A stretch of DNA of 63,974 nt, filler included, from 7 parts of 7 records of this genome joined end to end with filler, not necessarily neighbours in it, one strand, 5' to 3'; shown: positions 17,665-50,382, numbered from the whole stretch's first letter. The notes: a model not told the origin generated them from the sequence alone. A program made the numbers and translations.

Positions 17665-17665
17665 A

Positions 17666-20121: not shown

Positions 20122-20132
20122 AGAGGTGAAGC

Positions 20133-21134: not shown

Positions 21135-21249
21135 AGTAAAATTATTATAAATATCCATGTTAAGCTTACTAAAACTTTTGTACTTTCTGAAAATTTGGGT
21201 GTATGTGAGTTTAAATTAAAAGGAAAAAGGAAAAAGTGGTGAAATAGTT

Positions 21250-21324: not shown

Positions 21325-21424
21325 NNNNNNNNNNNNNNNNNNNNNNNNNNNNNNNNNNNNNNNNNNNNTTAATTAATTAANNNNNNNNNNNNNNNNNNNN
21401 NNNNNNNNNNNNNNNNNNNNNNNN
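21325..21424. other. Artificial contig spacer
   Basis: Ns flanking TTAATTAATTAA. Confidence 0.98.
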
Positions 21425-26868: not shown

Positions 26869-27868
26869 TGTTAACGAAGTTTTCATCGGTGAGTGTTTTT
26901 AAAAATGCAAGCAAGGCCTGCTTTTCCTGGTTTGATAGACTCATTGGCCTGATTAATGGGCTTTTATTAGCGTGCTGTTTTCCACCGGTGTTGTAATGGT
27001 CAATCACTTCCTCAAGTTTGCTGATTGAACCATCATGCATGTAAGGGCCGGTAAGTTCAACATTCCTGAGTGATGGTACCTTAAAAACAGCACGATCACT
27101 TTCTTCGCCGGTCAACCGAAATCGGCCGGAATCATCATATTCAGCATACAACCCATTATTGGTGAAGCCATAATTGGTAAAATTGAATCCGCTGTGACAA
27201 CTTGCACAATTTGTTCTGGAACTTTCAAATAGTGTCAGTCCTTCATTTTCCAGTTCAGAAAAATTTGCTGTCCCGTTAAGGTATTGATCGTACTTGCTGT
27301 TGCCACTGATCAAGGACCGCTCGAAGGTGGCAATAGCACGCGGAATCACGTAATAATCAATCTCCCGTCCGTAGGCCTGTTCGGAAAGTTCCTGATAAAC
27401 GCTGTCGGAAGAGAGCAATTCAGCAATTTCCAAAATATTCGAATTGAACTCAGTGTGTTCCTGCACAGGCACCAGCACCTGCATCTCCAGTGTGGGCACA
27501 CCGCCTTCCCTGGTGAAATAGGGATGATAGCCCACATTGGCCAGGCTTGGGGCATTGCGTGTTCCGGACAACTGATCGAACCCACGGCTAAAAGCCACTG
27601 TATCGCTGAAAGCTTTCTGTGGATGGTGGCATGATGCACAGCTCACCTTCCGGTCATTGGAAAGCCGCACATCGTAAAACAGCCGCTTACCCAGTTCCCA
27701 TGCCGCTTCCGAAAACGGGTTATCTTCGGGGAAAGCAGGCTCTGGAAATCCCGCAGGAACCAGCAGCAAGGGTTCTGCTTCCTTTGGAGATGGAACTTCG
27801 GTTTCCGCTTTTTGACAAGCTATCCCAATAAAAACCAGCAAAAAAAGATATGTGATTTTGTTGTGCAA
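26849..27868 (-). CDS. Diheme cytochrome c peroxidase family lipoprotein (MbnH/MauG-like), copy 1
   Basis: Two CASCH motifs, RNAPSL, FKVPSLRN, PYMHDG; IAC lipobox. Confidence 0.9.
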   Translation of the reverse strand: MHNKITYLFLLVFIGIACQKAETEVPSPKEAEPLLLVPAGFPEPAFPEDNPFSEAAWELGKRLFYDVRLSNDRKVSCASCHHPQKAFSDTVAFSRGFDQLSGTRNAPSLANVGYHPYFTREGGVPTLEMQVLVPVQEHTEFNSNILEIAELLSSDSVYQELSEQAYGREIDYYVIPRAIATFERSLISGNSKYDQYLNGTANFSELENEGLTLFESSRTNCASCHSGFNFTNYGFTNNGLYAEYDDSGRFRLTGEESDRAVFKVPSLRNVELTGPYMHDGSISKLEEVIDHYNTGGKQHANKSPLIRPMSLSNQEKQALLAFLKTLTDENFVNNEKFRP

Positions 27869-27878
27869 TTACAATCTG

Positions 27879-28838
27879 TTATTGGGCTACAACAAGTTTT
27901 TCTGATTGAACCAACTGCCCGTTATGCCAAAGCTGAACAAAATAGATACCCGCCTCGCCGAAACTAAGCTGTTGTTTGTGGGCTCCCTGAATCGGCTTGG
28001 AAACGATTTGCCTGCCTGTCATATCTGTAACTGTAAGATGTCCTGATGAAGATTGCGGCCAAACTAAGCTTATGGAAGCTTTACCCGAATAAGTTGGATT
28101 GGGGTATGCCTGAAAGGATTGTTTACCTGCTTCAGAAATTCCAGTAAAAAGAATTTGTGAAAAAACATTATCGGAAAAATTATGGAGCAATGTTTCAGCA
28201 GCACCAACCTCACTATGTTCAATCAATCCGGTAGAAACATCAATGCCCTGATACATGCCCATGTAATCGGCCTGCAATGCAATCACCAGGTCGTCACCTT
28301 CCCAAACTGCGCTTGTAGCCACCGAAGACTGCATGTAGTTGGCATCGCCAAGTGCGTGGATCTGGTAAACAAAAAGCAAACCAATACCTGTGAACCCTTC
28401 AAGGCAAACAAACCGGTATCCTGAGGCCCACCCCCAGTGCATAGACGGGTTTTGCGGTGCCAGCGGATGACCACTGGGATAAGTTGTCGGGTCAAGGTGA
28501 TTGTGCTCCGGATCAACGCCGATATGGAAGGTAATCCCCTCAACATCTGTAATATTATGACTGCCCAACGCATAATCCATTTGGTTTTTGGCATCAACCA
28601 GCAACCAGGTTTCCTCGATTTCAGTTACCTGCCCGCCATCATGCTGGATGGCAATTTCTGAAATATAATACTCCAGGCGCGTAATATTGAAATCATAACC
28701 TAAATCAGGTTCTGAATATTCCTGGTTAAACTGTAGGGGTTCACCATTCATGGTGTGCTCCAACCGCAGCAGTACGTTGGTCTGAGCAAAAAATGTTAAT
28801 GAAAAAAGTACAAGTGTAAGTGTAAAGATTTGTCGCAT
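27879..28838 (-). CDS. mbnP: MbnP family copper-binding protein with a T9SS C-terminal domain
   Basis: LEYYISEI, GITFHIGVD and MHWGWASGYRF (WxW motif); C-terminal YPNP...GIYFVQL...KLVV. Confidence 0.82.
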   Translation of the reverse strand: MRQIFTLTLVLFSLTFFAQTNVLLRLEHTMNGEPLQFNQEYSEPDLGYDFNITRLEYYISEIAIQHDGGQVTEIEETWLLVDAKNQMDYALGSHNITDVEGITFHIGVDPEHNHLDPTTYPSGHPLAPQNPSMHWGWASGYRFVCLEGFTGIGLLFVYQIHALGDANYMQSSVATSAVWEGDDLVIALQADYMGMYQGIDVSTGLIEHSEVGAAETLLHNFSDNVFSQILFTGISEAGKQSFQAYPNPTYSGKASISLVWPQSSSGHLTVTDMTGRQIVSKPIQGAHKQQLSFGEAGIYFVQLWHNGQLVQSEKLVVAQ

Positions 28839-32055: not shown

Positions 32056-33710
32056 TTAATCCCTCATACAACGCACACTTAAACCATCACCCTTAGGGTT
32101 GCCTCCACGGCTAACGAAGGCAAAGTGGTTGTACATGTTCCGGTGCCAGACGGCCGCAGCCGAGCTCTCCGTCGAAGACCACCAGTAAACGTCGGCATTC
32201 ATGGCGAAAAAAGAATCCCAATCACTGTTACGGAATCCGCCCGGTAAGCCCGAAAAACCTGTGCTATTATTTGCTGAAAGGTTGTTGCCTACAGCACAGG
32301 TTTCTGATGCACTTGTCCAGTTGGTAGTGGCAGCAAGTGCTTTTGCAATGTAAAAATCATCACCATTGCAGAGGTGTTCGGGCTGACTACTCACATAATC
32401 GGTTAAAGCAGTCCACTCGGCATCGGCAGGCAGGTGCCAGCCTTCAGGGCACGCATCCAGCGATGCCGGCCAGTTATACAAAACACCATAGGTTTGGTAA
32501 TTTGTTGTGGCTTGGGCTTCTGCTACACTTGTTCCCTGGTAATCATACACATAATAATACGGATCGGTATTACTACCTTGCGAAGATGGATATACCTCCG
32601 GCAGATATGCGAGGTTTTCCGCCATCCAGCATTGATCGCCAATAAGGACAGTTTCATACTGCTGTCCATCCCTGGAGTCAGTAATAACATCGCCACAATT
32701 AAAAGATACTGTTTCAACCTCGGTTTGAAATCTCCACATCGGCCCGTTGGTAGTATTGCCCTGGTCGTCGTGTGCCACTATTCTCCAGTAATACCAGGTT
32801 TCGTATTGCAGTGTGCCGGGCTCAAATGTTGATCCCGATTGACCTGTAGCCACTGATGGCGGTGTTTCGGATGTGCCAAAATAAACATCATAGGTAATGG
32901 GGTCGTTATCCGCGTCGAGGGAACTCCAGGAAAGGATGGTTCCTTCCACAGGTTGTTCCGTGCTCAGGTTTTCCGGCACAGCATAATGCGGTGCTGATGG
33001 TGGCTGATTGGCCGGTGCCTCGCCATAAACACAGCGCATGCTGAATCCCAAACCCTTATGCCATGCCGCTCTGTAAGATGAATCTGTAACAGCAAATAAA
33101 ATCCTGTACCAGCCATTTTCGGCGGAGGCTTCGGTGAGTGTCCAGAATCTGGCGCCACTACCCAGACCGTAGAATGAACCGGTATCAAAAGCACGGCCAC
33201 CCGCGGGAAGGGCTGAGAATCCAAAAAGATCAGTGCCATTGCCATTGTCATTCCATCCGGTTGTACTTTTCAGGTTTTTGTTTGTATCAAAGCCACGGTA
33301 ACCGGTTTGATCCCAGAATGGATCTCCTACCGGATACTGGCTGTCCGCATTGCCTTCCAGGATTTTCCATTCGGCATCATTGGGTGTGTGCCAGCCTTCC
33401 GGACAAGCATTTTGTGCTGCCGGCCAGTTGTAAAGTACACCATAATCCTGGTAGTTTTGTGTGGCTTTGGCTGCAGCAATATCCGTACCCTGGTAATCAA
33501 ACACATAATAATAAGGTGCTGCATCACTACCATCAGATGAAGGACTCACAGAGGGCAGGAATGCCAGGTTTTCGGCCATCCAGCACTGGTCACCAATCTG
33601 AACAGTTGCGTAAGTATTGTCATCTCTGCTATCAATAAAAGTATCTCCGCAGGAAAACTGAGCGGTTTCTTCCTCAGTAGTAAAACTCCACACCGGCCCT
33701 TCGGTGGCAT
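32056..33710 (-). CDS. Protein with two FISUMP (Fib_succ_major) domains and an Fn3-like linker, 5' truncated
   Basis: Two copies of DSRD..Y.TV.IGDQCWMAENL, YGVLYNW, CPEGWH; SVRC/SMRC ends. Confidence 0.9.
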
Positions 33711-37137: not shown

Positions 37138-38493
37138 ATGAAAGAACTTATCCTTGTTCATTGTGTCGATACGGAAGGTCCTCTTTACGAATCCATTTCA
37201 GCTACTTTTGAACGTGTAAAAAGTACTTTTGGCTTGGAGTATGAACCTTCACGAAGCCAATTGATTCGGTTGAAAGCTGGAAAAGACATACCTACCGAGT
37301 TGAAGAACAAAGTGGTTGACTTTGTTTCTGACGAGCGACTTGGGTATAATTCGACTTGGACTGAAGTGGATGAAATGCTTCAATTGTTGATGTCAGACGA
37401 CTGGCGCATGAGTCACGCAGATGATCATGGTAATGGGTACGTTTTTTCTTGGTTTGTCATGGATCATGTAGGATTTACAGTCAATCCTCGACAACGAGCT
37501 TTGGGATTTCATTCCGTATACGAACATTACAAAGAATTATTTAAAGAGTATAAACCTAAAAATGATGCTTTGTATTGGCACTTTCATCCTGTACCGTTTT
37601 CTTATGAGGCCAACAGGGCTTCATGTAATTATAGTTTCACTTCGTATCATATTGAATCAATTAGTCGGCGGATAATAGATTTTCTTGATTTCCCTGCTGC
37701 ATTTCGTCCAGGCCTGCATTGTGAAAGACCTGATATCAATTTGTTCTTGGAAATGTGGATTCCTGTTGATTATGGTAATCAGGGAATGCCGGAGAGTTCT
37801 GAAGATGCCATGCAGAAAGATGTCTGCGGTGGACGTTTTGGAGATTGGCGGAGAGCATCCTCAGATTGGGGCGTTTATCATCCTGATTGGTATGATTATC
37901 AGCGCTCAGGAAGCATGAAACGCTACATTGCGCGTTGCCTTAATCTCAATGCCCGTATCAGAGCAATTACGGAAGACGAGGTGCATAAGGCCTTTCGTCA
38001 AGTACAATCAGGACAGTCAACGATTCTTTCAGTGACTAGCCATGATCAAAATCGGATGGCTGCTCCCATATCTCAATACATGGAGCTTGTTCGAAAAGTT
38101 CAGAAGCATTATCCCGATATTTCAATTCGTCATGCAAACGCAGTAGATGCAGTCCGGTCAGTATGTGGTTTGAGTACAGAGTCACCTGTTCAATTAGAAT
38201 TCGAATGGACAGGCAACCGATTGGATATTGTAGCGGATAAAAATATTTGGGGCCCACAGCCTTGGCTTTGTTTTAAAACATTAGACCAACGTTGTTTTCA
38301 TGAAAATTTGGATAGACAGGAAGGGAATCATTGGAGCTTTGTATTTGATATTGATTCGATTCCTTTGGATCGCCTTGAGGCGATCGGCATAGCTACCAAT
38401 GATAACAATTTTAATGCGTCAGTCTACAGGATTCCGGTTCGTTACGGAAAACCTGGCCCTGTCGAGTTTCGTTTTAGAAATACTGGGAATTAG
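37138..38493 (+). CDS. Hypothetical protein, possibly a metal-dependent deacetylase-like enzyme
   Basis: HCVDTEGP, WHFHP, FRPG and TSHD resemble the NodB/CE4 motif order; the fold call is an inference. Confidence 0.55.
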   Translation: MKELILVHCVDTEGPLYESISATFERVKSTFGLEYEPSRSQLIRLKAGKDIPTELKNKVVDFVSDERLGYNSTWTEVDEMLQLLMSDDWRMSHADDHGNGYVFSWFVMDHVGFTVNPRQRALGFHSVYEHYKELFKEYKPKNDALYWHFHPVPFSYEANRASCNYSFTSYHIESISRRIIDFLDFPAAFRPGLHCERPDINLFLEMWIPVDYGNQGMPESSEDAMQKDVCGGRFGDWRRASSDWGVYHPDWYDYQRSGSMKRYIARCLNLNARIRAITEDEVHKAFRQVQSGQSTILSVTSHDQNRMAAPISQYMELVRKVQKHYPDISIRHANAVDAVRSVCGLSTESPVQLEFEWTGNRLDIVADKNIWGPQPWLCFKTLDQRCFHENLDRQEGNHWSFVFDIDSIPLDRLEAIGIATNDNNFNASVYRIPVRYGKPGPVEFRFRNTGN

Positions 38494-38514: not shown

Positions 38515-39867
38515 CTATGCTGGTTGGATCAGGAATGTATTGAGACATAATTCAGTTACATCCACCTGAGGAAAATCCGGTCTGATGTTCTGAATTTCAG
38601 CCATTCTATTTAACACCATGCTACGTGTAAGCCGTGGGAATTTATCCAGAGCATAGCGAACCTTTTGACCATTGCGACCAGGTTGGTGAGCGCGGATGAG
38701 TTTGCTTAAATGCTTTCGCCAGCATTTTATATCTCCCCACAGTCCCAATGGTTTTGGAAGCCAGGAGTGCTCATGTGTACAATTGGTTTGAACGAGGTCC
38801 GCAAGAATCGAAGCAGAATCATTTTGAATCGTATGGAGATAAGGGCTAATCGTTTGTGTTTGTCTGGTTCTTTCTGTTATTGAATCACAGTTATTCAAAG
38901 TCTTCAGAACTTCTTCTGCGGTCACTGTTTGGTGTCCAATTTTGCCTGAAAGCTGCGACGTTATGCTTTCATCAAAAATTGGTCGAAATTGGATGACTGG
39001 GATACCAAGAAGCATGGCCTCTATTCCAGTTGTACAATCATGGTGAATGACTGCTTTTGCGGAAGCAATCCAATTTCTGACTCCCCCCTTGTTTGTGACA
39101 AAGATATTTTTGAGTGTACTAAATTCTTGTTCGTAAACAGTAGCGTTTTCTACAGGATGGGGGCGAATGATTATTGTGTGATCTGGGAGTGCTTCTGCAA
39201 TATATTTGACCATGCTATTGAATTCATTGAGAAGGTCTTTTTGGTAAGTATTTATATTTTCAAGATAGTCTTGCAGCCCTTCCTCACCATAGCATTTCCA
39301 TTCATCCATACTGCTTAACATTCTGATATAATTTTTAAATCCCATTTTGTGATTGTAGAAATAAAAATTAGTATTGATCAGAATGAAATTTTCACCGTAT
39401 TCATCGGTGATGGATTTGTCTTTGTAGAGGGGGACGAATTCTTTTTTTAGCAAGTCAAATGAAGGATATCCGGTCGGTATGACCTTACTTTGCTGATCCT
39501 CTGGTAGGTGGGAAGAAATGAGTTGTGTCTGTTCTTCTCCCCACATGCACAACTTTGTCGTATAGGGGGCAACTTTTGTGTAATTGTCGATCAATTGGTC
39601 TGGACTGCCAATGAGAGATAGGCCTTCAGCGTTAAGGTTGAAGACAATTCCGCCATTCTCCAGAATCTTTTTATTCGTCGGTTGGTGTTGATCACTGTCA
39701 AAGTAACAAATGGGTGCAGTCGTTGATTTGACGTATTGATTAACCATTCTTTCACCCAACAATACAGGATAGCCGCGGGAGGCAAGGTTGAGGGCAAAAT
39801 AAAGCATGCCGTCAAGTTCGCGAGTTGCGATTTCCATGGGAATTGCACAAAGCATAATGTCAATCAA
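38515..39867 (-). CDS. Surface carbohydrate biosynthesis protein (GT-B, putative nonulosonate transferase)
   Basis: EIATRELD, TGYPSFDL, ILINTNF, RPHPVE, CTTGIEA. Confidence 0.75.
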   Translation of the reverse strand: MIDIMLCAIPMEIATRELDGMLYFALNLASRGYPVLLGERMVNQYVKSTTAPICYFDSDQHQPTNKKILENGGIVFNLNAEGLSLIGSPDQLIDNYTKVAPYTTKLCMWGEEQTQLISSHLPEDQQSKVIPTGYPSFDLLKKEFVPLYKDKSITDEYGENFILINTNFYFYNHKMGFKNYIRMLSSMDEWKCYGEEGLQDYLENINTYQKDLLNEFNSMVKYIAEALPDHTIIIRPHPVENATVYEQEFSTLKNIFVTNKGGVRNWIASAKAVIHHDCTTGIEAMLLGIPVIQFRPIFDESITSQLSGKIGHQTVTAEEVLKTLNNCDSITERTRQTQTISPYLHTIQNDSASILADLVQTNCTHEHSWLPKPLGLWGDIKCWRKHLSKLIRAHQPGRNGQKVRYALDKFPRLTRSMVLNRMAEIQNIRPDFPQVDVTELCLNTFLIQPA

Positions 39868-39899: not shown

Positions 39900-40907
39900 T
39901 TATTGAGCAAGAAAGGCTTCAGGATTTTGTCGAAGTGCGGCCGTAGCTGTTTTGATAACCGTTTGAGTATTGTATACTTCGATTGTTCCATGTCCGACTG
40001 ACGCTTTTTTTACGTCTTCAATGATTGCCGGATATGCTTTTAGTTTGCCAAAATCATAATGCGTTGTCTCTGGATTTCTCGCGTAGAGATAATAAGAACG
40101 TGTGTCAGTCAATCCATTGTCAGTATACGCGTGTTTGAATTCAAGAGTGTTGCGATAGGGAACTTTTTCTCGGAATTCTGTCGTGTGCACAATAGAAGCG
40201 TAACTCAAGTCAATACCAGCACAGAGGAGTTTGGCATTTTGATCGATGGCCTTTTGCCATGGAGAGTCGTCTGCATACGCGTATGTATTTTCCCCACTCA
40301 TGAGATCTTCGGCTTTGGCTCCTAATGCACATGCACCATCAAGAGGATTGTTATTTCTTGTGGCACCTGGACGCGTCCTGACGAATTCGGGGAAAACACC
40401 AAGGCTAGGAATGGCAGGAGTGTTTTGTTTATCGAAAGCATCATTTTTGAATACCGGTATATTGCCAGCTGGAACCATAATCGTTCCTTGAGAGCCAATG
40501 ACGTTGAAAATTCCTTGGAGAAAACCATCAAGGTCATTTTCGAAAGAACCAAGATGTTGAAGGCCGGAATGAATAACAAGCATGTCTCCAGATGTAATGC
40601 CCGTATTTTTGAGCGCTTCTTCCCATTCTTTTATCGTAACTGTATGTTGGTGTTTTTCGCCACCCATACAGAAGGCCATGGTTTCAAGGGTACTGAGTGG
40701 ACCATCGCCAACTAAACTGAGATCCATTCCATTTCCGAGGGTTGCTTCAAATTCTAATTGCAATGCAAGGAAGCTCATGGAGTCAATGAGTCCAGAGGCG
40801 ATAATATCAAAATCGTCAGCCAGTTCTGATGCAGAATGGATATCAAGTTTGGTCAGCTTATCGCAATATTTTGTGAAGATGAATTGCTTAAGATCTTTTA
40901 CATTCAT
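39900..40907 (-). CDS. Acyl carrier domain fused to an AAC(3)/YokD-family N-acyltransferase
   Basis: N-terminal GLIDSMSFLAL phosphopantetheine site, then LVIHSG, GTIMVP, LGVFPEFVR, SIVHTTE. Confidence 0.8.
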   Translation of the reverse strand: MNVKDLKQFIFTKYCDKLTKLDIHSASELADDFDIIASGLIDSMSFLALQLEFEATLGNGMDLSLVGDGPLSTLETMAFCMGGEKHQHTVTIKEWEEALKNTGITSGDMLVIHSGLQHLGSFENDLDGFLQGIFNVIGSQGTIMVPAGNIPVFKNDAFDKQNTPAIPSLGVFPEFVRTRPGATRNNNPLDGACALGAKAEDLMSGENTYAYADDSPWQKAIDQNAKLLCAGIDLSYASIVHTTEFREKVPYRNTLEFKHAYTDNGLTDTRSYYLYARNPETTHYDFGKLKAYPAIIEDVKKASVGHGTIEVYNTQTVIKTATAALRQNPEAFLAQ

Positions 40908-42501
40908 TTTTTTTCATCATGGTGACAAGAGCTTTCCTGTCAACTTTTCCGTTTGAGTTAAGGGGCATGGTTTCGACTTGGATATAGCGTTTTGCTCGCA
41001 TGTAAGTCGGGAGATTCTTGTTGGAAATTGCTTCGAAATCAATTTCGGGGCTACCGCTGTAGAAGACAATGAGTTCGATAGGAGCTTCAGGGTCCTCTTG
41101 GAATCCAACAGCAACAAGATGTTCAACATTTGAGCCTGTGCGAAGAACATGTTCGATTTCACCAAGCTCCACTCGATATCCTGCAATTTGGATTTGATTA
41201 TCGATGCGGCCAATGAAAATTAGGTCACGGTTGTTATCGAAGCGGACCAAGTCGCCGGTACGATACCACCTGTTGTCTCTTTTTCTGATATCGGTGTTCA
41301 ATTTGCAGAATTTTTCATCGCTCAGTGTTTTATTTTTCCAATAGCCTGGCGCCAATTGGTTGCCTCCCAAGCAAAGTTCTCCGATATCTCCGGTCGGTAC
41401 GGGTGTCAATGTCTCATCGACAACGGCAACGTCAAGCCCAGGCAGAGGGGTTCCAATTGGGACGCAACCTTGACAGTCGGCGGGGAGCGGCGTTTTGGGA
41501 TTGTATTCGTAATCTGTAAAATAGACGGTCGCTTCTGTGGGCCCATAGAGATTGAAGACTTTTGAGTTCTGTGCTGCTGCTGCAAAATTTTGTGCAGTTG
41601 TTTCTAGGAGAGTTTCTCCACAAAAAAGGGAAAGACGGAGATGAGGCAATGATTTTTGTTTGAGAAGTTTGAATTTGGAAAGAAAAACAGCGACTGCTGG
41701 AACAGAGAACCATACTGATATTTTATGTTTATTTACAAAATTTATAGGAAGCATAACCTCTGGTTGAGGCACGCAGAAAATGGCCCCCCCGACCGTCAGG
41801 GGAATGAAGATATCAAAGACGGAAAGGTCAAAGGTGAAATCGAAAAGTTGTGTAAATGAATCAACAGAAGTGAATGAAAATTTTTGGATGGAATTCGTCA
41901 CCATGCTGACTGCATTTGTGTGAGTTATCCCAACTCCTTTGGGGGTGCCGGTGCTGCCGGACGTAAAGAGAAGATATGCGATTTCGCTTGGTTTGACTTC
42001 TGGTGAGACAAGGTGAGTTTTTGCCGGGGCTTCTAGTTCTGATTTGTCCAAAAATGAAATGGTAATATTTTGTGCAACCGTTTCGAGATGGGGCAGATTT
42101 CCAAGAACAATGATCGAAAATTCCTGTTCCTGATCACCAAGCATATCTAAAAGTTCGTTGAGGTGGTCAGCATCAGTGATGATGATATTAATGCCGGATT
42201 TGTCTATGGCAGCAAGTACACGACTTTGCGGAAAGATTGGATTGAGAGGAACATATCCGTTTCCACTATGGAGAGCTGAAAGGATTCCCGTATACATGTG
42301 AATCGAACGATAGGCATATACACCAATGAGTTTGCAGTGATTGTCAAGCTGGGTAATGCGTTTTGATGTGCTGTCGATTCTGTTAGCCAACATCTGATAT
42401 GTATATTCGATACCATCAACGTACAGGGCTTTGTTGTCGGGATACAAAGAAGAATTCTTTATAAAACCGTCGATGAGTAAAGTGTTCTGCGACAGAGTCA
42501 T
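40888..42501 (-). CDS. Stand-alone amino acid adenylation enzyme (DltA-like)
   Basis: FTSGSTGTPKG, FDLSV, NLYGPTE, YRTGD, GYRVELGEIE, NSNGKVDR. Confidence 0.9.
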   Translation of the reverse strand: MTLSQNTLLIDGFIKNSSLYPDNKALYVDGIEYTYQMLANRIDSTSKRITQLDNHCKLIGVYAYRSIHMYTGILSALHSGNGYVPLNPIFPQSRVLAAIDKSGINIIITDADHLNELLDMLGDQEQEFSIIVLGNLPHLETVAQNITISFLDKSELEAPAKTHLVSPEVKPSEIAYLLFTSGSTGTPKGVGITHTNAVSMVTNSIQKFSFTSVDSFTQLFDFTFDLSVFDIFIPLTVGGAIFCVPQPEVMLPINFVNKHKISVWFSVPAVAVFLSKFKLLKQKSLPHLRLSLFCGETLLETTAQNFAAAAQNSKVFNLYGPTEATVYFTDYEYNPKTPLPADCQGCVPIGTPLPGLDVAVVDETLTPVPTGDIGELCLGGNQLAPGYWKNKTLSDEKFCKLNTDIRKRDNRWYRTGDLVRFDNNRDLIFIGRIDNQIQIAGYRVELGEIEHVLRTGSNVEHLVAVGFQEDPEAPIELIVFYSGSPEIDFEAISNKNLPTYMRAKRYIQVETMPLNSNGKVDRKALVTMMKKNECKRS

Positions 42502-42588
42502 CTTATATTATCTCAATTTGTTATGATAGGGCAGTTCGTATGAACTTTTTGTAGTTACGATCAGTCGGATAATGTCAACGGATTGGAA

Positions 42589-43392
42589 TTACCAAGCAGT
42601 CCAACCGCCGTCAACAAGCAGATTTTGCCCTGTAACATAGGCCGATAAGTCGCTAGCAAGATAGAGAAGTGCACCCTTCATGTCTTCTTCAGTGCCCATG
42701 CGTTTCATCGGGGTGCGTTCCTTGTATCGGTTGACGAATTTTTCATCCTGGCCTCGGGCAATTCCACCGGGACTGATACAGTTGACGCGGATATCCGGGG
42801 CTAGTGTCGTGGCGAGCCAGCGAGTGAGTTGAGTCAGACCTCCCTTGGAGGCGGCGTAGGCTGCAGGGTTGCCCATGGCCGTGCCTTCGTAGAGAGACAT
42901 GTCCGGGCCGACCACGCCATAGGTTGAACCAATATTGATGACTGAACCATGGCCGGATTCACGGAGGAATGGAGTTGCAGCCTGAATGAGGGCGAAGCAG
43001 GCCGTCAGGTTGGTTTCCAAGGCAGCGCGCCAGGTGGCTACACTTTGTTCTTCAAAAGGCGTGACCCAACCGGTTAGGCCTGAAGTGCCAACAAATGCGG
43101 CGCAGTTGACGACGATGTCGAGTGAGCCCATTTTGTCTTTGATCTTTTTGGGGGCAGCAACAACCGCGGCCTCGTCGGAAAGATTGACTGTTAGGCCTAA
43201 GGTTTTGACTGAGTAAGTGGCAGCCAGTTTCGACGCCGATTCCTGTACGCGATCAGTGGCAATGTCGAGTACTGCGATGTTCGCGCCTGCTTCAGCCAAT
43301 GCTTCGCAAAAGGCTGTTCCAATATATCCGGCACCGCCAGTAATCAGGGCAGTGCGACCAGTCAGGTCCATAAGTTGTTTTATGCTTTTCAT
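42589..43392 (-). CDS. ptmA: SDR oxidoreductase, PtmA-like
   Basis: TGGAGYIG, GSTYG, YAASKGG, VTGQNLLVDGGW; position in the cluster. Confidence 0.75.
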   Translation of the reverse strand: MKSIKQLMDLTGRTALITGGAGYIGTAFCEALAEAGANIAVLDIATDRVQESASKLAATYSVKTLGLTVNLSDEAAVVAAPKKIKDKMGSLDIVVNCAAFVGTSGLTGWVTPFEEQSVATWRAALETNLTACFALIQAATPFLRESGHGSVINIGSTYGVVGPDMSLYEGTAMGNPAAYAASKGGLTQLTRWLATTLAPDIRVNCISPGGIARGQDEKFVNRYKERTPMKRMGTEEDMKGALLYLASDLSAYVTGQNLLVDGGWTAW

Positions 43393-44069
43393 GAGTTTCG
43401 CTCCATAAGAAATTCAGCAAAGGCGAAGTCGAGTTCCGTGTCGATATCTACGGCTCTCTCTGGTGGTATCTCTACCATTTTAACTTTGCCTTGAAAGACG
43501 GCATCGTGTTCGAGAATGAAGTTTGGGGTGGTAACATAACAAACTGTGGTCATGTCAAAAACCGGGGGGGCCTCTTGGCGACGTATGATGTCCGTACCTG
43601 TGGGCATGGCAATGGTTGCGTATCCGGCAGTGTCCACTGTTATCATGTTGAAAGAAGGATGCCGTTCAGCCTCACGTGCTGTGATGACCATATCGCACTT
43701 GTCACTTTCGAATGTTTCGATACAGCGACGTACGTCGTCTCCGATACGCATGGGGGCGGTACAAGGGAGAGAAACGAATATGTCGAAATCATCCACGGCG
43801 TTTATGGCGTGTCGCCATGCCAACCATTCAGGGCTGCTATCCTGGGCCAGTTCTGTTGGTCGCATGAAGGGAACTTCCGCACCGAGTTGCCGAGCGGTGT
43901 CAGCGATGGCCTCGTCGTCTGTAGACACGATAATTCGGTCTAGCAAACCGGAGTTTTGACCTGCTTTGATAGCGTGACCAATGAGTGGGATGCCGCCAAG
44001 AGGGCGAATGTTTTTTCCTGGTACGCCCTTGGAGCCGCCTCTGGCAAAAATGAATCCATATCGTTTCAT
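43389..44069 (-). CDS. legF: CMP-nonulosonate (acylneuraminate) cytidylyltransferase
   Basis: ARGGSKGVPGKN, VSTDD, DIDTELDF. Confidence 0.88.
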   Translation of the reverse strand: MKRYGFIFARGGSKGVPGKNIRPLGGIPLIGHAIKAGQNSGLLDRIIVSTDDEAIADTARQLGAEVPFMRPTELAQDSSPEWLAWRHAINAVDDFDIFVSLPCTAPMRIGDDVRRCIETFESDKCDMVITAREAERHPSFNMITVDTAGYATIAMPTGTDIIRRQEAPPVFDMTTVCYVTTPNFILEHDAVFQGKVKMVEIPPERAVDIDTELDFAFAEFLMERNS

Positions 44070-44974
44070 GGTGCCGTTATCCAGGTGTTAGTGTGTGCAC
44101 TTTTTTCAACAGCTTGGACTAATTGGACGACGTTCATACCTTGTTCAAACGAACAAAGGTGCGGATTATCGACCATCATGGCCCTGAGTTGATTTTCATA
44201 TGTGGTGTTTCGGTCAATGGAAAATTCTTCCGTTGTAGTACCCATCGTAAGCGTTCCTGCAATGAAGTCAGCTTGGAGACAGAATTCTTGCGTGGTGATG
44301 ACGAATCCTCGACGTGTGGTCCTGCTCAGGTAGTCCATGTGGATGGTGACGGCAGGGCAACCAGCGGTTTCCATGAGGATGGAAAATTGATCATCGGAGT
44401 CGATTCTGAGATCGCTGAAATGACCACCAATGGCTGTGACGCGTTTCCAACATCCCAGAAGAAAACAGGACAGATCGAGTTCATGCGACAGATCTCGTAG
44501 TACCCCACCGCCTTGCGCACGGCTGGCTGAATAGCTGGTCGTGTAATCTGTGCCGGGCCGCCAGTCGGGCAGGTATTGGCCAACGTGAAATTGTGCGTTG
44601 AGAATCGTTTGACCCGTGAGCAACTCTCGTGTGCGTGTGACCAGTGGGTGAAAGCGAAGATTGTACGCCACCCGAATGGTGTCGCGTGGAGGAACGAGTG
44701 CGTATGGTTCATCGAATAGGGGTTTCTCAACCAGGATAAGTCCGGTAAAGCCAGTGTCCATAAGCATAGTCAGACTTGGAAGATGTTCGACTGTGGCATT
44801 GGAAATGATAGCCAGTGAAGGCGAAGTTGTTTGTATGGCCTCGGCTATAGTTGAGAAGATCGGGTAAGGGCAACTTGGATTGCTGGTTACGCACGCTAGA
44901 GAGTAGTCCAATGAATCGAGAATTTGTGCGTGACGTGCTCCAATAGATCCATACCCTATGATCAATGCTTTCAT
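44066..44974 (-). CDS. ptmF: Gfo/Idh/MocA oxidoreductase, PtmF-like
   Basis: GYGSIG, EKP, GGGVLRDLSHELD. Confidence 0.75.
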   Translation of the reverse strand: MKALIIGYGSIGARHAQILDSLDYSLACVTSNPSCPYPIFSTIAEAIQTTSPSLAIISNATVEHLPSLTMLMDTGFTGLILVEKPLFDEPYALVPPRDTIRVAYNLRFHPLVTRTRELLTGQTILNAQFHVGQYLPDWRPGTDYTTSYSASRAQGGGVLRDLSHELDLSCFLLGCWKRVTAIGGHFSDLRIDSDDQFSILMETAGCPAVTIHMDYLSRTTRRGFVITTQEFCLQADFIAGTLTMGTTTEEFSIDRNTTYENQLRAMMVDNPHLCSFEQGMNVVQLVQAVEKSAHTNTWITAP

Positions 44975-44975
44975 G

Positions 44976-46040
44976 TTAGCACTCTTCCTTTACGCGAAAG
45001 TGCATGTCGTAATCATAATTGGCCTGATCAAAATCTTGTTTACGGCCAATATCCATCCAGTATTCATGGATGGGGAAAGCCGATGTCGTTTCGTCTTTGT
45101 TCATGAGCTGACTAAACAGGGTCGGCATATCCAGGTATTCATTTTTAGGGATAGATGCGGCAATGTCCGGATCCAACACGTAGATTCCCGCATTGACGAA
45201 AAATTTATGTGTTGGTTTTTCTTCAAGGTGTGTGATTATGTTGTCTTCAACATTGACCACACCATATGGGACTTGAATGTCGAACCTGCGGACTGCCATT
45301 GTTGCTCGGGCTTTTTGTTCCTGATGAAAAGCAAGCATACCAGGGAAATCCACGCGGGTAAGCAGGTCTCCGTTCATGACAAATATTGGTTTGTCAGTTT
45401 GTTGGGGGATAAGGCCAACAGCTCCGGCTGTTCCTAGTTGTTTGTCTTCTCGAAGGTACCGAATTTCCACGCCATGCTTTGAGCCGTCGCCAAAGTAATC
45501 TTCGACCATTTCGGCGCGGTAGTTGACGGAAATATAAAAACGCTCAAAGCCATATTCTACGAATTGGTCCAAAATTGTACTGAGTAACGGTTTGCCGCCC
45601 ACTGTCAGAAGCGGTTTGGGACAATCCTCGGTAAGGGGGCGCAAGCGTTGGCCTAGGCCGCCCGCCATGAGTACGACCCAATTGTCTTTTTTGGGAGGAG
45701 TGACCATGTCCATAAGGGTCCGTAAACCCACAATACGATTTTCGTTATCAAGTAAAGGTACCTGGCGGAATTCTTGTTCTCGCATAGTTGTCAGCAGAAC
45801 AGACTGGTCGTCGTGTTCATTGGCCGAGAAGAAATTAGTTTCCATGATTTCAGCAACAGGTGACTCCAGTGTTTTTCCTGCTAATAAACCACGTCTGACA
45901 TCGCCGTCAGTGATGACTCCTTTGAGGTGTCCCGAATTATCAACGACTAAAGCTATCTGTGTTGCTGACCGATTGAGTGCTTCCACCGAGTCACGGATTG
46001 TGGCTGATGGTGGTATGACAGATTCTTTCCAACGAGTCAT
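44976..46040 (-). CDS. ptmE: CBS-pair nucleotidyltransferase, PtmE-like
   Basis: Two CBS domains, MAGGLGQRLRPLT, PKPLL, VMNGD. Confidence 0.82.
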   Translation of the reverse strand: MTRWKESVIPPSATIRDSVEALNRSATQIALVVDNSGHLKGVITDGDVRRGLLAGKTLESPVAEIMETNFFSANEHDDQSVLLTTMREQEFRQVPLLDNENRIVGLRTLMDMVTPPKKDNWVVLMAGGLGQRLRPLTEDCPKPLLTVGGKPLLSTILDQFVEYGFERFYISVNYRAEMVEDYFGDGSKHGVEIRYLREDKQLGTAGAVGLIPQQTDKPIFVMNGDLLTRVDFPGMLAFHQEQKARATMAVRRFDIQVPYGVVNVEDNIITHLEEKPTHKFFVNAGIYVLDPDIAASIPKNEYLDMPTLFSQLMNKDETTSAFPIHEYWMDIGRKQDFDQANYDYDMHFRVKEEC

Positions 46041-46043
46041 AGG

Positions 46044-47225
46044 TTATTCCTCGCCTGCAAGCAGGCTGTGCGTGATGTCGTAAAATGGTTTGGCAACATG
46101 GAAGGTAGCTTGCTTGATCTCATTCAAAATGTGCAAGCTGGTTCCTTCTTTTTCATACGGGTTCATGACTTCTTTGACAACTCGGGTTTGGCCAGCTTCC
46201 AATGCTCGGCGGGTTCTTCGTACAAGAATTTCAGACACAGACGGTGAGTTGAATACGGATTTGGCCTGTTCTCTTCCTTTTTGTCGTATGCCGACATTAA
46301 TAGAAGGGATTTTGAAACTTGGTGCTTCTAAAATGCCGGAAGAGGAATTGCCAATGACAGCTCCACAGTACTTCATTGCGGATAAATATCGGACAAGGCC
46401 AAGCGACGGAACAACGCAAGTTTGTCGAGGATGTTTATTTGCAAGTAGAGCGGCCCGTTCATCAATGGCGTTACCGCCGGGATCAGCATTGGCCCCGGTG
46501 ATGATTGCTGTCATAGTCGGATCATCCGAGAGCAGTGTCTCAATGGCAGAGAAAAATTCATTGAGTTGGGTTTTATCATCTTTATCCTGAGTTACAGGAT
46601 GATAGGTCGTGAGCAAACAGTTGTCACCCATGGAGAAATTGAGGTCAGCCTCAAGTTCAATTTTGTCCATCAGGGGGATGGTCATGATATTCTCTACCCC
46701 GAGAGCTCCCACATTGAAGACAGTGTCTGGATGTTCTCCTAATTGAATGACTCGATCTCTGTATGCTTCGCAAGAGGTGAAATGGAGATGAGACATTTTT
46801 GTAATGGAGTGGCGATAGTAATCATCCATGGCTCCTTCGGTTACTTCTCCGCCATGGATATGGGCAATAGGATATCCCAGGATTGAGGCAGCAGTGGCGC
46901 AGGCAAAACATTCATATCGATCACCGAGTAGTATCAGAATGTCTGGCCTAATTTTATCCAAAGCATGAGCGCAGCCAGTGAGTGCCTCTCCCATGGCTGT
47001 GGCAACTCCGAGGCGAGTGTCGTCATTGAGTTGAAGTGGTACTGTAGCCTGGATCGTGAAACCGTCCGCAAGGATGGCGTCGACAGTATGACCATGCCGG
47101 TCAGACAAATGTGACCCTGAGACCAGAAGTTGAAGTTCGGTATCAGGGTCTTGCTTAATGCGTTTAAGCAACGGGAGTAATAGGCCGTATTCGGCGCGCG
47201 TACCTGTGAAAACACAAATTTTCAT
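46044..47225 (-). CDS. legG: Hydrolysing NDP-sugar 2-epimerase (NeuC/LegG)
   Basis: TGTRAEYG, GDRYE, HIHGGE, GNSSSG. Confidence 0.88.
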   Translation of the reverse strand: MKICVFTGTRAEYGLLLPLLKRIKQDPDTELQLLVSGSHLSDRHGHTVDAILADGFTIQATVPLQLNDDTRLGVATAMGEALTGCAHALDKIRPDILILLGDRYECFACATAASILGYPIAHIHGGEVTEGAMDDYYRHSITKMSHLHFTSCEAYRDRVIQLGEHPDTVFNVGALGVENIMTIPLMDKIELEADLNFSMGDNCLLTTYHPVTQDKDDKTQLNEFFSAIETLLSDDPTMTAIITGANADPGGNAIDERAALLANKHPRQTCVVPSLGLVRYLSAMKYCGAVIGNSSSGILEAPSFKIPSINVGIRQKGREQAKSVFNSPSVSEILVRRTRRALEAGQTRVVKEVMNPYEKEGTSLHILNEIKQATFHVAKPFYDITHSLLAGEE

Positions 47226-48238
47226 AGCTCAATAATCTCCCCTGTATGGAAATATCTGGCTGCTGTTTGTTGCATTACTTCATCCCATCGCATGGGAGAA
47301 ATTCCACCTTGACCAGTTCGTTTGGCGACCACATTGGCTTCGGTAAAAGGTTCTCCTGCCATAATGGGGGCGGCTGCCACGAGAAACCGGCGAGCAATGT
47401 TGATGTTTTCTTTTTCGCTTACGCTTGGCTGTTTGGTCCCATCACCCAGAGCCTTTTCAATATCTCTGATACCGGAAACCATGGCAGTGAGTTCTTCTGG
47501 GTCAATAGACGCTGCATGGTCCGGGCCTTTCATGGTTTTGTCCAGAGTAAAGTGCTTTTCAACGAGCGAAGCCCCCATAGCAGTAGCCGCCACTGGACAG
47601 GATATGCCGGGAGTGTGGTCTGAATAACCAACTGCACATTCAGGAAAAGCGAGAGCCAGTGTGTCCATGGCTTTGAGGTTGGCATCCTCAAGAGGTGTTG
47701 GGTATTGGGTGTTGCAATGGAGTAGAGTTATGTCTTTAGCTGATGCCCCTGTTTCCATGAGGGCCGTGACAGCGGCTTTGACTTCTTCCAACGTGGTCAT
47801 GCCTGTAGACATGACAATGGGGACTCCCTTGTTGCCCACTCGGCGTAGATAGGGGAGATTTGTAATTTCTCCAGATGGGATTTTAATAGTGTTAATACCG
47901 AGTTCAAGAAGCATATCCAGACTGTCTGCATCGAAGGGGGTGGAGAGAAATTCTATATTGTGTTTTTGGGCATGAGCGATGAGGTCTTCGTGCGCCTTTG
48001 TATCCAGTTCGAGTTTCTTTAACATGGCAAACTGGGATTCTTCAGCTCCAGAAGTCTCTTTTTGATAGTTTGCCTTTTGGGCCAGATCTGTGACGATTTC
48101 TTTGGCTTTGAAAGTCTGAAATTTAACCGCATCAGCTCCGGCTTTGGCTGCCACCTCTATCAGTTGGCGAGCGAGACTCATATCTCCGTTGTGATTGACC
48201 CCTGCTTCGGCGATTATAAAGACCGAATTGCGGTTCAT
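47222..48238 (-). CDS. legI: Nonulosonate (legionaminic acid) synthase (NeuB/LegI)
   Basis: IIAEAGVNHNG, KFQTF, STPFD, GYSDHT, EKHFTLD; ATGA overlap at 48238. Confidence 0.9.
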   Translation of the reverse strand: MNRNSVFIIAEAGVNHNGDMSLARQLIEVAAKAGADAVKFQTFKAKEIVTDLAQKANYQKETSGAEESQFAMLKKLELDTKAHEDLIAHAQKHNIEFLSTPFDADSLDMLLELGINTIKIPSGEITNLPYLRRVGNKGVPIVMSTGMTTLEEVKAAVTALMETGASAKDITLLHCNTQYPTPLEDANLKAMDTLALAFPECAVGYSDHTPGISCPVAATAMGASLVEKHFTLDKTMKGPDHAASIDPEELTAMVSGIRDIEKALGDGTKQPSVSEKENINIARRFLVAAAPIMAGEPFTEANVVAKRTGQGGISPMRWDEVMQQTAARYFHTGEIIEL

Positions 48239-49362
48239 ATACATTCCTCCTTGCGGGGGCTACTTGGCAGGTTGACGGTGCGGGCAGCCAGATATCTGGC
48301 GTTAATCAAACCGTCGTTGAGGTTGTTTGCATACATGGGCAAGTCGGCCATCAAGGTCCACAGGGGACGAGTCATGATACTTGCATCGTTGCTTGCGGTT
48401 AGGAAATGGTCGCGTTGTTCTTGTGATTCAAATCGGATGGTGTTTAACCAATAATTAGCCGTACAATTGGCTGGTGCATCAATGTACGTAATATCTTTTT
48501 TCCCCTCAAAGAAAGTTTTGTAAGCCGAAGCAATTACCTGTTTGTCCCTGAGGATGGCGTCAAGTTTTTCCATTTGCGCACAGCCTAAGGCAGCGTTGAC
48601 GTTTGGCATGCGATAGTTCCAGCCAATGTTGTCGTGGCGAAATTCCCATTTATGTGGGATTTTGGCGGTGGTGGTCATATGCTTGGCGTGCGCACCCAAC
48701 TCAGCATCTTTTGTCAGGATCATACCTCCACCACCAGTGGTAATGGTTTTGTTTCCGTTAAAGCTGAGGACCCCAAAAGTACCGAAAGTGCCGAGATGCT
48801 GTCCTTCGTAACGACTCCCAAGGACCTCGGCGGCATCTTCTACCACCGGAATGTCGTATTCTGCACAAATTTCGCAGATTTCACGGATACGACAGGCGTG
48901 GCCCAGAATATGAACCGGTACACATGCGGCGATATGCCCATTAGCAGGATTATGATTTTTTAAAAATGTTTTCAGTGCGTCAGGACTCATCCCCAGACTA
49001 TCTTTGTCCGAGTCGAGGAAAACGGGCTTGGCTCCGGTGTGGCTGATGGCGTTGGCTGAGGCTACAAAGGTTAATGCTTGAGTCAGGACGAGATCGCCAG
49101 GACGTACGTTGACCATACCCAAGGCTGCGGTGAGGCCGCAGGTGCCATTAACTACGGCAATAGCTCGGGCCGCGTCTGTGAAGTCGCAGACCATATCTTC
49201 GAATCGGTCAACATATTTTCCCACACTGGAAACAAAAGTGGAGTCGATGCAGTCGCATAGATATTCTTTTTCGTGTCCGAAAAAAATAGGTGCATGGAGA
49301 GGAATGAACCCCTCAGGCTCCCGATAGAGTTGTCTGATGAAAAAGAGTACGTCGTCAAACAT
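48235..49362 (-). CDS. legC: LegC aminotransferase
   Basis: IPLHAP, STFVSSVG, SFNGNKTITTGGGG, NYRMPN. Confidence 0.92.
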   Translation of the reverse strand: MFDDVLFFIRQLYREPEGFIPLHAPIFFGHEKEYLCDCIDSTFVSSVGKYVDRFEDMVCDFTDAARAIAVVNGTCGLTAALGMVNVRPGDLVLTQALTFVASANAISHTGAKPVFLDSDKDSLGMSPDALKTFLKNHNPANGHIAACVPVHILGHACRIREICEICAEYDIPVVEDAAEVLGSRYEGQHLGTFGTFGVLSFNGNKTITTGGGGMILTKDAELGAHAKHMTTTAKIPHKWEFRHDNIGWNYRMPNVNAALGCAQMEKLDAILRDKQVIASAYKTFFEGKKDITYIDAPANCTANYWLNTIRFESQEQRDHFLTASNDASIMTRPLWTLMADLPMYANNLNDGLINARYLAARTVNLPSSPRKEECI

Positions 49363-49371
49363 TAGGCTATC

Positions 49372-50382
49372 CTAAATATTGTATATGTCTGCTTTATAGC
49401 GTTTAAGATTTTCACCGTCAGCGAACCATTTGGCTGTTAATTCAAGGCCGCGTTTGAAACCATCCAACCCGTTGAATTCCGGTTCCCAATTACAAAGTTT
49501 TTTGACCTTCTCATTTCCGGCAAATAATCTTTCAACTTCACTGTTTTTAGGGCGAATTCGTTCCTGATCGCAGACTATTTCGATATTTGCTCCCATCACA
49601 TCGGCAATGGCTTGTGCTGTGTCACCTATTGATACTTCAAATCCGCTCCCCACGTTGACCACTTCCCCTATACAGTCGTCAGATGCTGCTACGGCTTCAA
49701 AACCGCGGACTGTATCGGATACATAGTTGAAGTCACGAGTGGGTGTGAGTGCGCCGAGTTTGATAGTCTCCGCACCATTGGCAATTTGCGTAATAACGGT
49801 TGGAATGACCGCACGAGCACTCTGGCGAGGCCCATAAGTGTTAAACGGACGAATGATGGATACGGGTGTTTCAAAGGCATTGTAGAAGCTCATAGCTATT
49901 TGGTCAGCACCGATCTTTGTGGCTGAATATGGAGATTGACCTTGAAGCGGATGATCTTCGGTGATGGGAACAAATTGCGCTGTACCATAAACTTCACTTG
50001 TGGAAGTGACCACAACACGTTCTACGCCAAGGTCTTTGGCAGCTTGAACGATATTCAGAGTGCCTTTGACATTGGTATCAACATACGTGTCCGGAGAGTG
50101 GTAGGAATACGGGATAGCGATGAGTGCAGCAAGATGCATGACCACATCACATCCCTTCATGGCTTCGCGTACCCCGTTAGGGTCGCGTACGTCACCAGAG
50201 AATATTTCCAAATTGTCTATTATATCTTTTGGAGATTCGTCGAGCCATCCCCAAGAGTTGAAGGAATTGTAAAGGACAAAGGCGCGGACTGAATACCCTT
50301 GGCGAATTAGATATTCAACCAGATGGGAACCAATAAAACCATCTGAGCCGGTGACGAGAATTTTTTTTCCTTTTAGATTCAT
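49372..50382 (-). CDS. legB: NDP-GlcNAc 4,6-dehydratase LegB
   Basis: GSDGFIGSH, YNSFNSWGWL, LIAIPYSY, QSPYSATK. Confidence 0.92.
   Translation of the reverse strand: MNLKGKKILVTGSDGFIGSHLVEYLIRQGYSVRAFVLYNSFNSWGWLDESPKDIIDNLEIFSGDVRDPNGVREAMKGCDVVMHLAALIAIPYSYHSPDTYVDTNVKGTLNIVQAAKDLGVERVVVTSTSEVYGTAQFVPITEDHPLQGQSPYSATKIGADQIAMSFYNAFETPVSIIRPFNTYGPRQSARAVIPTVITQIANGAETIKLGALTPTRDFNYVSDTVRGFEAVAASDDCIGEVVNVGSGFEVSIGDTAQAIADVMGANIEIVCDQERIRPKNSEVERLFAGNEKVKKLCNWEPEFNGLDGFKRGLELTAKWFADGENLKRYKADIYNI

Follow-up and report, generated by a model that had tools for sequence, protein, structure and literature searches.

Introduction

Nonulosonic acids decorate flagella, S-layers, capsules and lipopolysaccharide, and their N-acyl groups, which include alanyl, N-acetylalanyl, hydroxybutyryl, glutamyl and formyl groups, set antigenicity and recognition by phages and by the immune system. 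To our knowledge, the enzymes that install the non-acetyl groups are mostly unassigned. In the biosynthesis of legionaminic acid (Leg), as in the bacillosamine pathway, the C4 amine of nucleoside diphosphate (NDP)-4-amino-4,6-dideoxy-GlcNAc is N-acylated by enzymes of the LegH/PglD/NeuD type, the gene for which lies beside neuB in canonical clusters. Here, we describe a leg operon of ten genes, all on the minus strand at positions 39900-50382 of a stretch of DNA of 63,974 nt (the 64-kb window, to the whole of which all positions refer), in which that step is vacant. The operon ends in a gene for a stand-alone adenylation (A) domain of the non-ribosomal peptide synthetase (NRPS) type and a gene for a protein that joins a putative carrier domain to an acyltransferase domain of the AAC(3) fold. 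Whereas LegH-type enzymes have a left-handed β-helix hexapeptide fold and use acetyl-CoA, the enzyme proposed here would combine the AAC(3) fold with a carrier-tethered aminoacyl group.

The two terminal genes resemble parts of other known systems. As in the DltA/DltC pair, an A domain that stands alone and contains FDLSV is accompanied by a carrier that has a DS(L/M) motif and is approximately 80 residues long. However, the carrier is here fused to the transferase, none of the 48 open reading frames (ORFs) of the window that were scanned was recognized as encoding a protein of the DltB or DltD type, and the expected product would be an amide on an amino sugar rather than an ester on teichoic acid. 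With the AAC(3) enzymes, YokD and FrbF, the transferase domain shares its fold (TM-score 0.83), two His residues and, as predicted, the N-acylation of an amino sugar or amine. Unlike the AAC(3) resistance enzymes, the window protein begins with a carrier, is paired with a cognate A domain and belongs to a separate clade in which all members are fused; nothing in our data suggests a role in antibiotic resistance.

The movement of a carrier-tethered acyl or aminoacyl group to a sugar amine is familiar from LpxD, which uses acyl-acyl carrier protein (ACP), and from BtrI/BtrH of butirosin biosynthesis. These systems have other transferase folds, and their carriers are loaded by a fatty-acid synthase or an ATP-grasp ligase as opposed to the A domain found here; we know of no carrier-transferase fusion in either. 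In the scheme proposed here, the known part of the logic would be DltA/DltC-type loading and the delivery of a carrier-bound acyl group to a sugar amine, and the new part the AAC(3)-fold catalyst and the architecture.

The product class that we predict has been described. The earlier note on this DNA had stated that N-alanyl legionaminic acids exist, and two reports bear this out: Leg5Ac7AcAla occurs in Vibrio vulnificus CMCP6 (PMC7371886), and a Leg derivative is present in an Escherichia coli O antigen, for which the gene list names ‘Lea3, alanyltransferase’ (PMC7685785). As far as that list goes, Lea3 stands third, after the aminotransferase Lea2, and possibly marks the LegH step, in which case it may be a LegH-type protein rather than a module of the present kind. 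When legC-legI DNA was used to look for the O161 (Leg5Ac7Ala) cluster of E. coli, the two matches examined were both canonical clusters with an acetyltransferase, one of them annotated O61. Carrier-based glycan acylation is not new in principle, because the flagellin glycosylation islands of Enterobacteriaceae carry ACP, LuxE, LuxC and CoA-ligase genes (PMC4875605). In the literature outside subscription journals and supplements, neither a carrier-AAC(3) fusion nor an A domain in a nonulosonate cluster was found described.

Results

The fusion protein combines a putative carrier domain with an AAC(3)-fold domain

The fusion gene occupies positions 39900-40907 on the minus strand and encodes a protein of 335 aa. 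Residues 92-335 (39900-40634, minus strand) form the acyltransferase domain, of which residues 112-325 matched PF02522 (Antibiotic_NAT) with 104.6 bits against a gathering cutoff of 25. An AlphaFold2 model of the fusion, built with an alignment of 21 fusion homologues (A1), reached a predicted local distance difference test (pLDDT) score of 90.9, and Foldseek matched the part of it beyond the carrier to AAC(3) enzymes, YokD and FrbF (E 1e-21; target-normalized TM-score 0.83 to 6mmz and 7mqk). In the HMMER alignment, His113 and His241 (codon 40185-40187) fall on H29 and H168 of meta-AAC0038, the two residues of that enzyme that were mutated in PDB entries 6mmz and 6mn0. His241, at the position of the catalytic His, is invariant in A1 (21/21), as is Glu244. 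Both the sequence matches and the predicted structure support the assignment of an AAC(3) fold with a catalytic His to the C-terminal domain. As a candidate aminoglycoside-resistance enzyme, the protein was rejected: it scored 91.2 bits with NF033082, for which the cutoff is 270, and 39-62 bits with subtype models that have cutoffs of 420-675.

The N-terminal domain (residues 1-88; 40644-40907, minus strand) was assigned with the A1 profile. The profile as a whole also matched AAC(3) structures. Its positions 12-85 matched PDB structures of a peptidyl carrier protein (2my5, E 1.9e-8), of many ACPs, that of E. coli among them (1acp, 1.7e-7), and of the D-alanyl carrier proteins 9xgl, 6bug and 8jf2 (1.4e-6 to 2.5e-6), and E values over the peptidyl carrier protein, ACP and DltC structures ranged from 2e-8 to 3e-6 overall. 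A phmmer search of the PDB with fusion residues 1-90 as a single sequence returned nothing. Ser43 (codon 40779-40781) is invariant in all 21 A1 sequences, where it lies within a G-x-x-D-S-L/M motif, and in the AlphaFold2 model it begins a helix (residues 43-57), as the corresponding residue does in carrier proteins. These comparisons support the identification of the N-terminal domain as a carrier domain with Ser43 as its putative phosphopantetheine site.

A word-based homologue search found a single near-identical protein (P0003, 99%), and scans of genome contigs with P0001 and with P0153 (Desulfovibrio aminophilus; approximately 36% identical) produced no confirmed relative. HMMER searching of 1.84 billion representatives recovered 3053 relatives at E <= 1e-3, of which only 10 reached E <= 1e-30. 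Among the best 150 relatives, about twenty of similar length also aligned across the N-terminal extension, and a hidden Markov model (HMM) of the fused N-terminal domains detected the carrier in 23 of these 150 representatives, every one of which has the motif (D/S/T/N)-S-(L/M/I/F). A FastTree phylogeny of AAC(3) domains was built from 147 representatives and one plasmid protein, after three representatives with an envelope of <180 residues and the near-duplicate P0003 had been dropped. The window fusion lies in a clade of 10 representatives that are all fused (Shimodaira-Hasegawa-like support 100), and the other 13 fused forms are scattered over the tree, with at least seven changes on well-supported branches. 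This distribution suggests that use of a carrier by AAC(3)-fold proteins is not a one-off, although the tree is a quick one and the number of origins is uncertain. Several long proteins (P0054, P0041 and P0059) join an AAC(3) domain to other domains.

The adenylation domain and its coupling to the fusion

The A gene (40888-42501, minus strand) encodes a protein of 537 aa (P0002) and overlaps the fusion gene by 20 nt. Judged by its TIGR01733 score (328.2 bits, cutoff 317.4), the protein is of the amino-acid-activating type. In the PDB it matched NRPS A domains best, LgrA for example at E 2e-99, and DltA structures at ~1e-53. The core motifs FDLSV (residues 224-228) and NGK (residues 517-519) are present, and both Asp225 of FDxS and Lys519 of the last core motif are invariant in the four orthologues; work on GrsA reportedly assigned roles to both positions, the Asp binding the α-amino group. 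An identity as a DltA orthologue was ruled out, since the protein scored 267 bits with TIGR01734 (cutoff 559.85) and 270.4 with PRK04813 (cutoff 476).

Ten pocket positions, tentatively mapped by hand from the core motifs with GrsA numbering, read DLFFSFLVYK in the window protein, DLYCSFFVFK in the orthologue at locus L001 and DFATAFLVFK in those at loci L002 and L003. The window pocket is aromatic-rich and bulky, and a small amino-acid side chain is our best guess for what it would accept. An Ala-like substrate is possible, but the earlier suggestion of one, as in DltA, is not supported, the DltA models being far below cutoff and the pockets differing among orthologues.

When metagenome contigs were scanned with an alignment of six sequences, four further loci were recovered, L001-L004. 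The A gene lies directly upstream of the fusion gene and overlaps it in the window, in L001 (39% identity), in L002 (43%) and in L003 (47%), that is, at 4/4 loci with upstream sequence; L004 (1.2 kb) is too short to judge. The same three parts also occur in other arrangements. In P0070 (889 aa) all three are joined in one A-carrier-AAC(3) chain, with the carrier motif LLDSLEY, and in P0101 (357 aa) the order is reversed, with the carrier C-terminal to the AAC(3) domain. A tblastn search with the A domain found a split version on plasmids pDCAR1 of Solidesulfovibrio carbinolicus and pDMC1 of S. magneticus RS-1, where the operon consists of a hypothetical gene, an A domain (35% identical), an 89-aa ‘acyl carrier protein’, a second hypothetical gene and an ‘AAC(3) family N-acetyltransferase’. 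The free 89-aa ACP matched the HMM of the fused carriers with E 2e-16. Three independent lines of evidence, the constant adjacency, the triple fusion and the split operon, link the three parts functionally, and we consider it very probable from these gene arrangements that they work together. Complex prediction for the A domain and carrier residues 1-90 gave a score of 0.26 against a mark of 0.34, and counts neither way.

A leg operon without a LegH-type acetyltransferase

Upstream of the A gene, eight minus-strand genes constitute the leg operon proper. The first four encode LegB, an NDP-GlcNAc 4,6-dehydratase (49372-50382; TIGR04180, 537.3 bits, cutoff 475); LegC, the pyridoxal phosphate-dependent aminotransferase of the DegT_DnrJ_EryC1 family that makes the 4-amino sugar (48235-49362; TIGR04181, 497.9 bits, cutoff 420); LegI/NeuB, the nonulosonic acid synthase, with NeuB and SAF domains (47222-48244; TIGR03569, 472 bits, cutoff 400); and LegG/NeuC, the hydrolysing NDP-sugar 2-epimerase (46044-47225; TIGR03568, 414.7 bits, cutoff 236). 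All four exceed their curated NCBIfam cutoffs. They are followed by a ptmE-like sugar-1-phosphate nucleotidyltransferase gene with CBS and NTP_transferase domains (44976-46040) and a ptmF-like gene of the Gfo/Idh/MocA type with GFO_IDH_MocA C-terminal domains (44066-44974), each with a counterpart in the E. coli O61 cluster. The run ends with a legF-like gene for a putative cytidine monophosphate (CMP)-nonulosonate synthetase (43389-44069; CTP_transf_3, 71.5 bits) and a ptmA-like short-chain dehydrogenase gene (42589-43392; adh_short_C2). For the CMP-sugar synthetase and the PtmE-, PtmF- and PtmA-type proteins, the domain families fit, but the PseF model (132.8 bits, cutoff 205.7) and the PtmA model NF050062 (138.7 bits, cutoff 350) score below their cutoffs.

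From legB to ptmA, the junctions vary between a 10-nt overlap and a 9-nt gap; legC overlaps legI and leaves no space for a further gene. The run legB-legC-legI-legG-ptmE-ptmF-legF-ptmA had been read from the sequence in the earlier note, together with an A domain overlapping an AAC(3) fusion; the NCBIfam and Pfam assignments and the spacing confirm both, with FDLSV where given above and GLIDS at fusion residues 39-43.

The same note had reported the absence of any hexapeptide or GNAT acetyltransferase from the cluster, a claim that our scans extend to the whole window. Pfam found no Hexapep or GNAT family in the 48 scanned ORFs. To this set, the 56 ORFs with a length of 150 aa or more contributed 47, and one ORF of 125 aa was added; the other nine all overlap larger scanned genes. 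With two LegH/PglD-like proteins from E. coli and those of L001 and L002 as the four queries, a tblastn search of both strands of the window gave a best E of 0.16. By comparison, all eight gene types recur in the canonical E. coli cluster annotated O61 (L007), which has in addition an ‘acetyltransferase’ between neuB and the ptmE-type gene; a second E. coli leg cluster is arranged in the same way. The window holds one pathway aminotransferase (LegC) and one N-acyltransferase (the fusion).

Related loci and their sugar context

Genes for NeuB, a DegT aminotransferase, a 4,6-dehydratase-like protein and a CTP_transf_3 protein lie within 10 kb of the module in 3/3 loci (the window, L001 and L002), and these three fused-clade loci share only 30-43% identity. 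L001 has, in this order, a dehydratase-like gene, a DegT aminotransferase gene, CTP_transf_3, the A domain, the fusion, a formyltransferase gene, two genes of unknown type and B12/radical-SAM genes, and continues with a legB-like gene, legC (53% identical to that of the window), a PglD-like acetyltransferase gene, neuB and neuC. L002 contains genes for a PglD-like protein, a dehydratase, an aminotransferase, CTP_transf_3, a second aminotransferase, the A domain, the fusion, a formyltransferase and NeuB. Both loci have two aminotransferases in addition to the PglD-like enzyme, the fusion and the formyltransferase. The second DegT aminotransferases (L001, 6497-7669; L002, 5121-6290) are 60% identical, and the formyltransferase gene directly follows the fusion gene in each (L001, 11048-12040; L002, 11011-11955).

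The second aminotransferase, the formyltransferase and the B12/radical-SAM genes of these loci point to a nonulosonate more elaborate than that of the window, possibly N-formylated. A simple tally of aminotransferases and N-acyltransferases is consistent across the three loci, with the fusion serving the one aminotransferase of the window and the PglD-like enzyme plus the fusion the two of L001 and of L002. In this reading, the formyltransferase could cap either a sugar amine or the α-amine of the added amino acid.

The split operon of Solidesulfovibrio instead adjoins genes for a CDP-glycerol glycerophosphotransferase, a cytidylyltransferase and glycosyltransferases. We rejected the notion that AAC(3) genes generally lie in sugar clusters, as four unfused plasmid contexts comprised one pseudaminic acid (pse) cluster, one sugar/sulfatase-related context and two unrelated ones. 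In the pse case, on Tritonibacter mobilis plasmid NZ_CP110387.1, a DUF4910 gene precedes the unfused gene of the AAC(3) family (L005, 7980-8753), which lies inside a pseB-pseC-...-FlmD-ATP-grasp-pseI-pseF cluster without an annotated PseH-type acetyltransferase, and its AAC(3)-fold product may perform the N-acetylation step of pseudaminic acid synthesis.

Neighbouring genes and the remainder of the window

A gene for a 450-aa protein (38515-39867, minus strand) begins 32 nt downstream of the fusion gene. Its match to Capsule_synth (E 0.012) is below cutoff; among its neighbours in the Atlas are a cluster labelled ‘putative surface carbohydrate biosynthesis protein’ and others with polysialyltransferase (PF07388, 18% in one) or glycerophosphotransferase domains in 18-19% of their members. 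As a weak lead, the protein may be the glycosyltransferase that uses the CMP-sugar; neither L001 nor L002 has a homologue of it.

Convergent with the operon lies a gene for a conserved 451-aa protein (37138-38493, plus strand), with orthologues in L001 (13262-14641; 56% identical) and in L002 (13435-14778, minus strand; 40%), so that it accompanies the module in 3/3 loci. The protein is probably an enzyme, because many His, Asp, Arg and Trp residues are invariant in the aligned sequences. It had no Pfam match at E <= 10, a profile search of the PDB returned nothing, and an AlphaFold2 model from a three-sequence alignment was unusable (pLDDT 44). Its relatives in the Atlas are found only in ‘hypothetical protein’ clusters, from Thermodesulfobacteriota and Pseudomonadota.

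Elsewhere in the window, positions 6000-22000 have 29-36% G+C and carry housekeeping genes (glutamate synthase, a flgG-like rod protein, flgA, rsmH, plsY and gpsA), and the rest has 39-54% G+C; this contrast reflects either a very uneven base composition or the joining of different genomes. The four genes at 21438-22595, 27879-28838, 32056-33693 and 4685-6013 encode two proteins with the type IX secretion sorting domain Por_Secre_tail, one with the Fibrobacter domain ‘Fib_succ_major’ and one with EGF and C-type lectin domains. Such domains would be unexpected in a Pseudodesulfovibrio, the label of the 99% identical P0003, and that label needs care. At 25723-28838 (minus strand), a gene for an MbnP-family protein sits beside two CCP_MauG genes for di-haem cytochrome c peroxidases, in an arrangement that resembles MbnP/MbnH.

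Discussion

A proposed thiotemplate route to an N-aminoacylated legionaminic acid

From these features we infer how the carrier would be loaded, which amine would accept the acyl group, at which position of the sugar, and from what kind of amino acid. The stand-alone A domain would adenylate an α-amino acid and load it as a thioester onto the phosphopantetheine group at Ser43. Instead of acetyl-CoA, the AAC(3)-fold domain would use this carrier-bound aminoacyl group as its donor and, through its His241/Glu244 pair, pass it to an amino group of a legionaminic acid precursor. The acceptor would be the C4 amine of NDP-4-amino-4,6-dideoxy-GlcNAc, the LegB/LegC product, which is the simplest candidate because the window has one aminotransferase and no LegH. 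LegG, LegI and LegF would then convert the acylated sugar to CMP-activated 5-N-acetyl-7-N-aminoacyl-legionaminic acid with a free α-amine.

Our confidence differs between the parts of this model. A thiotemplate N-acylation module is, by a modest margin over even, our best explanation of the last two genes of the operon, and an amine of the nonulosonate (here, legionaminic acid) pathway is a likely acceptor. That the module performs the LegH step in this organism, with the LegC product as acceptor, we put forward more tentatively, at somewhat under an even chance. The full statement, that AAC(3)-fold proteins include recurrent carrier-dependent aminoacyl transferases, that the line of A domain, carrier and transferase decorates amino sugars and that here it takes the LegH step to give a 7-N-aminoacyl Leg, is more tentative again.

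When set against the sequence data, the thiotemplate transfer proposed in the earlier note is upheld in the identities of the domains with their conserved catalytic and carrier residues, in the coupling of the three parts and in the link to nonulosonic acid clusters. A general replacement of LegH by the module is unsupported, because L001 and L002 retain a PglD-like enzyme, and replacement is kept as the simplest reading for the window only. As to the co-occurrence with leg clusters lacking legH that the note proposed as a check, all three loci are nonulosonate clusters, but two of them keep the PglD-like gene.

Evidence weighing against the model

Several observations weigh against the model just described. 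One is the retention of the PglD-like hexapeptide acetyltransferase in L001 and L002; in L001, its gene sits between legC and neuB, the canonical position of legH. The module must use another amine in these loci, and could do likewise in the window if legH were encoded elsewhere. For the split operon of Solidesulfovibrio, no nonulosonate gene was listed nearby in PLSDB gene tables that are themselves incomplete, and its glycan context implies that the module is not tied to nonulosonic acids as such. Modification of amino sugars in surface glycans would be the safe generalization of its role, with nonulosonic acids as the context for the clade of the window only.

Other points concern the parts of the module and their place in the operon. 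Of the two domain models that the earlier note had named as a check, Antibiotic_NAT matches and the family profile finds the carrier that it had recognized from the GLIDS motif, but the Pfam PP-binding model gave no match at E <= 10 with either the whole fusion or residues 1-90. The differences between the pockets of the A-domain orthologues suggest that members of the family load different amino acids. The A gene is separated from ptmA by a gap of 87 nt, and promoter and terminator scans gave counts equal to those of shuffled sequence.

Alternative explanations

The alternative that survives best retains the chemistry and changes the acceptor. The aminoacyl group would go to the C2 amine of an NDP-GlcN made by the PtmE route, as the N5 substituent, or to a nonulosonate that is later deacetylated, or to an amine of the assembled glycan, and a LegH/PglD enzyme encoded elsewhere would acetylate C4. 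L001 and L002, which hold a PglD-like acetyltransferase, the module and a second DegT aminotransferase side by side, are what would be expected from it, and the PtmE-like gene of the window implies that NDP-GlcN, its C2 amine free, is an intermediate, the NDP-GlcN route of PtmE having reportedly been worked out in Campylobacter jejuni. Within the 64-kb window, however, there is neither a second aminotransferase nor another N-acyltransferase, and it would be unusual, by the standard of the canonical E. coli clusters, for legH to lie far from a leg operon that is otherwise complete and closely packed. We regard this alternative as unlikely for the window, but as a serious competitor to acylation of the LegC product.

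A second alternative dispenses with the tethered substrate. The AAC(3) domain would be a plain acetyl-CoA-dependent N-acetyltransferase that replaces LegH and gives Leg5Ac7Ac, and the carrier and A domain would serve elsewhere, for example in a Dlt-like alanylation of a surface polymer. All the characterized AAC(3)-fold enzymes matched by the fusion use acetyl-CoA, and the unfused AAC(3) gene in the pseudaminic acid cluster of T. mobilis, for which no PseH is listed, would fit an acetyltransferase of this fold. Against this stands the covalent fusion of carrier to transferase, in which the Ser is invariant; it occurs in 23 of the 150 representative clusters examined, distributed over several parts of the tree. 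The triple fusion and the constant adjacency of the A gene also stand against it, as they are hard to explain if the carrier is ignored; nor is there a DltB- or DltD-like gene among the 48 scanned ORFs. We consider the plain acetyltransferase improbable.

Equally improbable is that the A domain and fusion belong to an unrelated pathway, for a small NRPS-like metabolite or another glycopolymer, and lie beside the leg operon by chance, for although the 87-nt gap, the non-nonulosonate glycan context of the split Solidesulfovibrio version and the two of four unfused plasmid AAC(3) contexts without sugar genes would allow it, the association with nonulosonate genes holds in 3/3 fused-clade loci at 30-43% identity, and the pair lies on the same strand as the leg genes with the next gene only 32 nt downstream.

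Implications of the proposed carrier-dependent aminoacyl transfer

If aminoacyl transfer from the fused carrier to a legionaminic acid precursor proves to be the function of this module, it would represent a testable enzymatic route to aminoacylated sugars and a new origin for known aminoacylated nonulosonic acids. It would also provide an amide-forming catalyst without a condensation domain for the NRPS toolbox, which could be used in glyco-engineering. The model would give a physiological role to part of the large AAC(3) family, for which ‘antibiotic resistance’ is the default annotation, and the present analysis advises caution against calling such environmental AAC(3) genes resistance genes.

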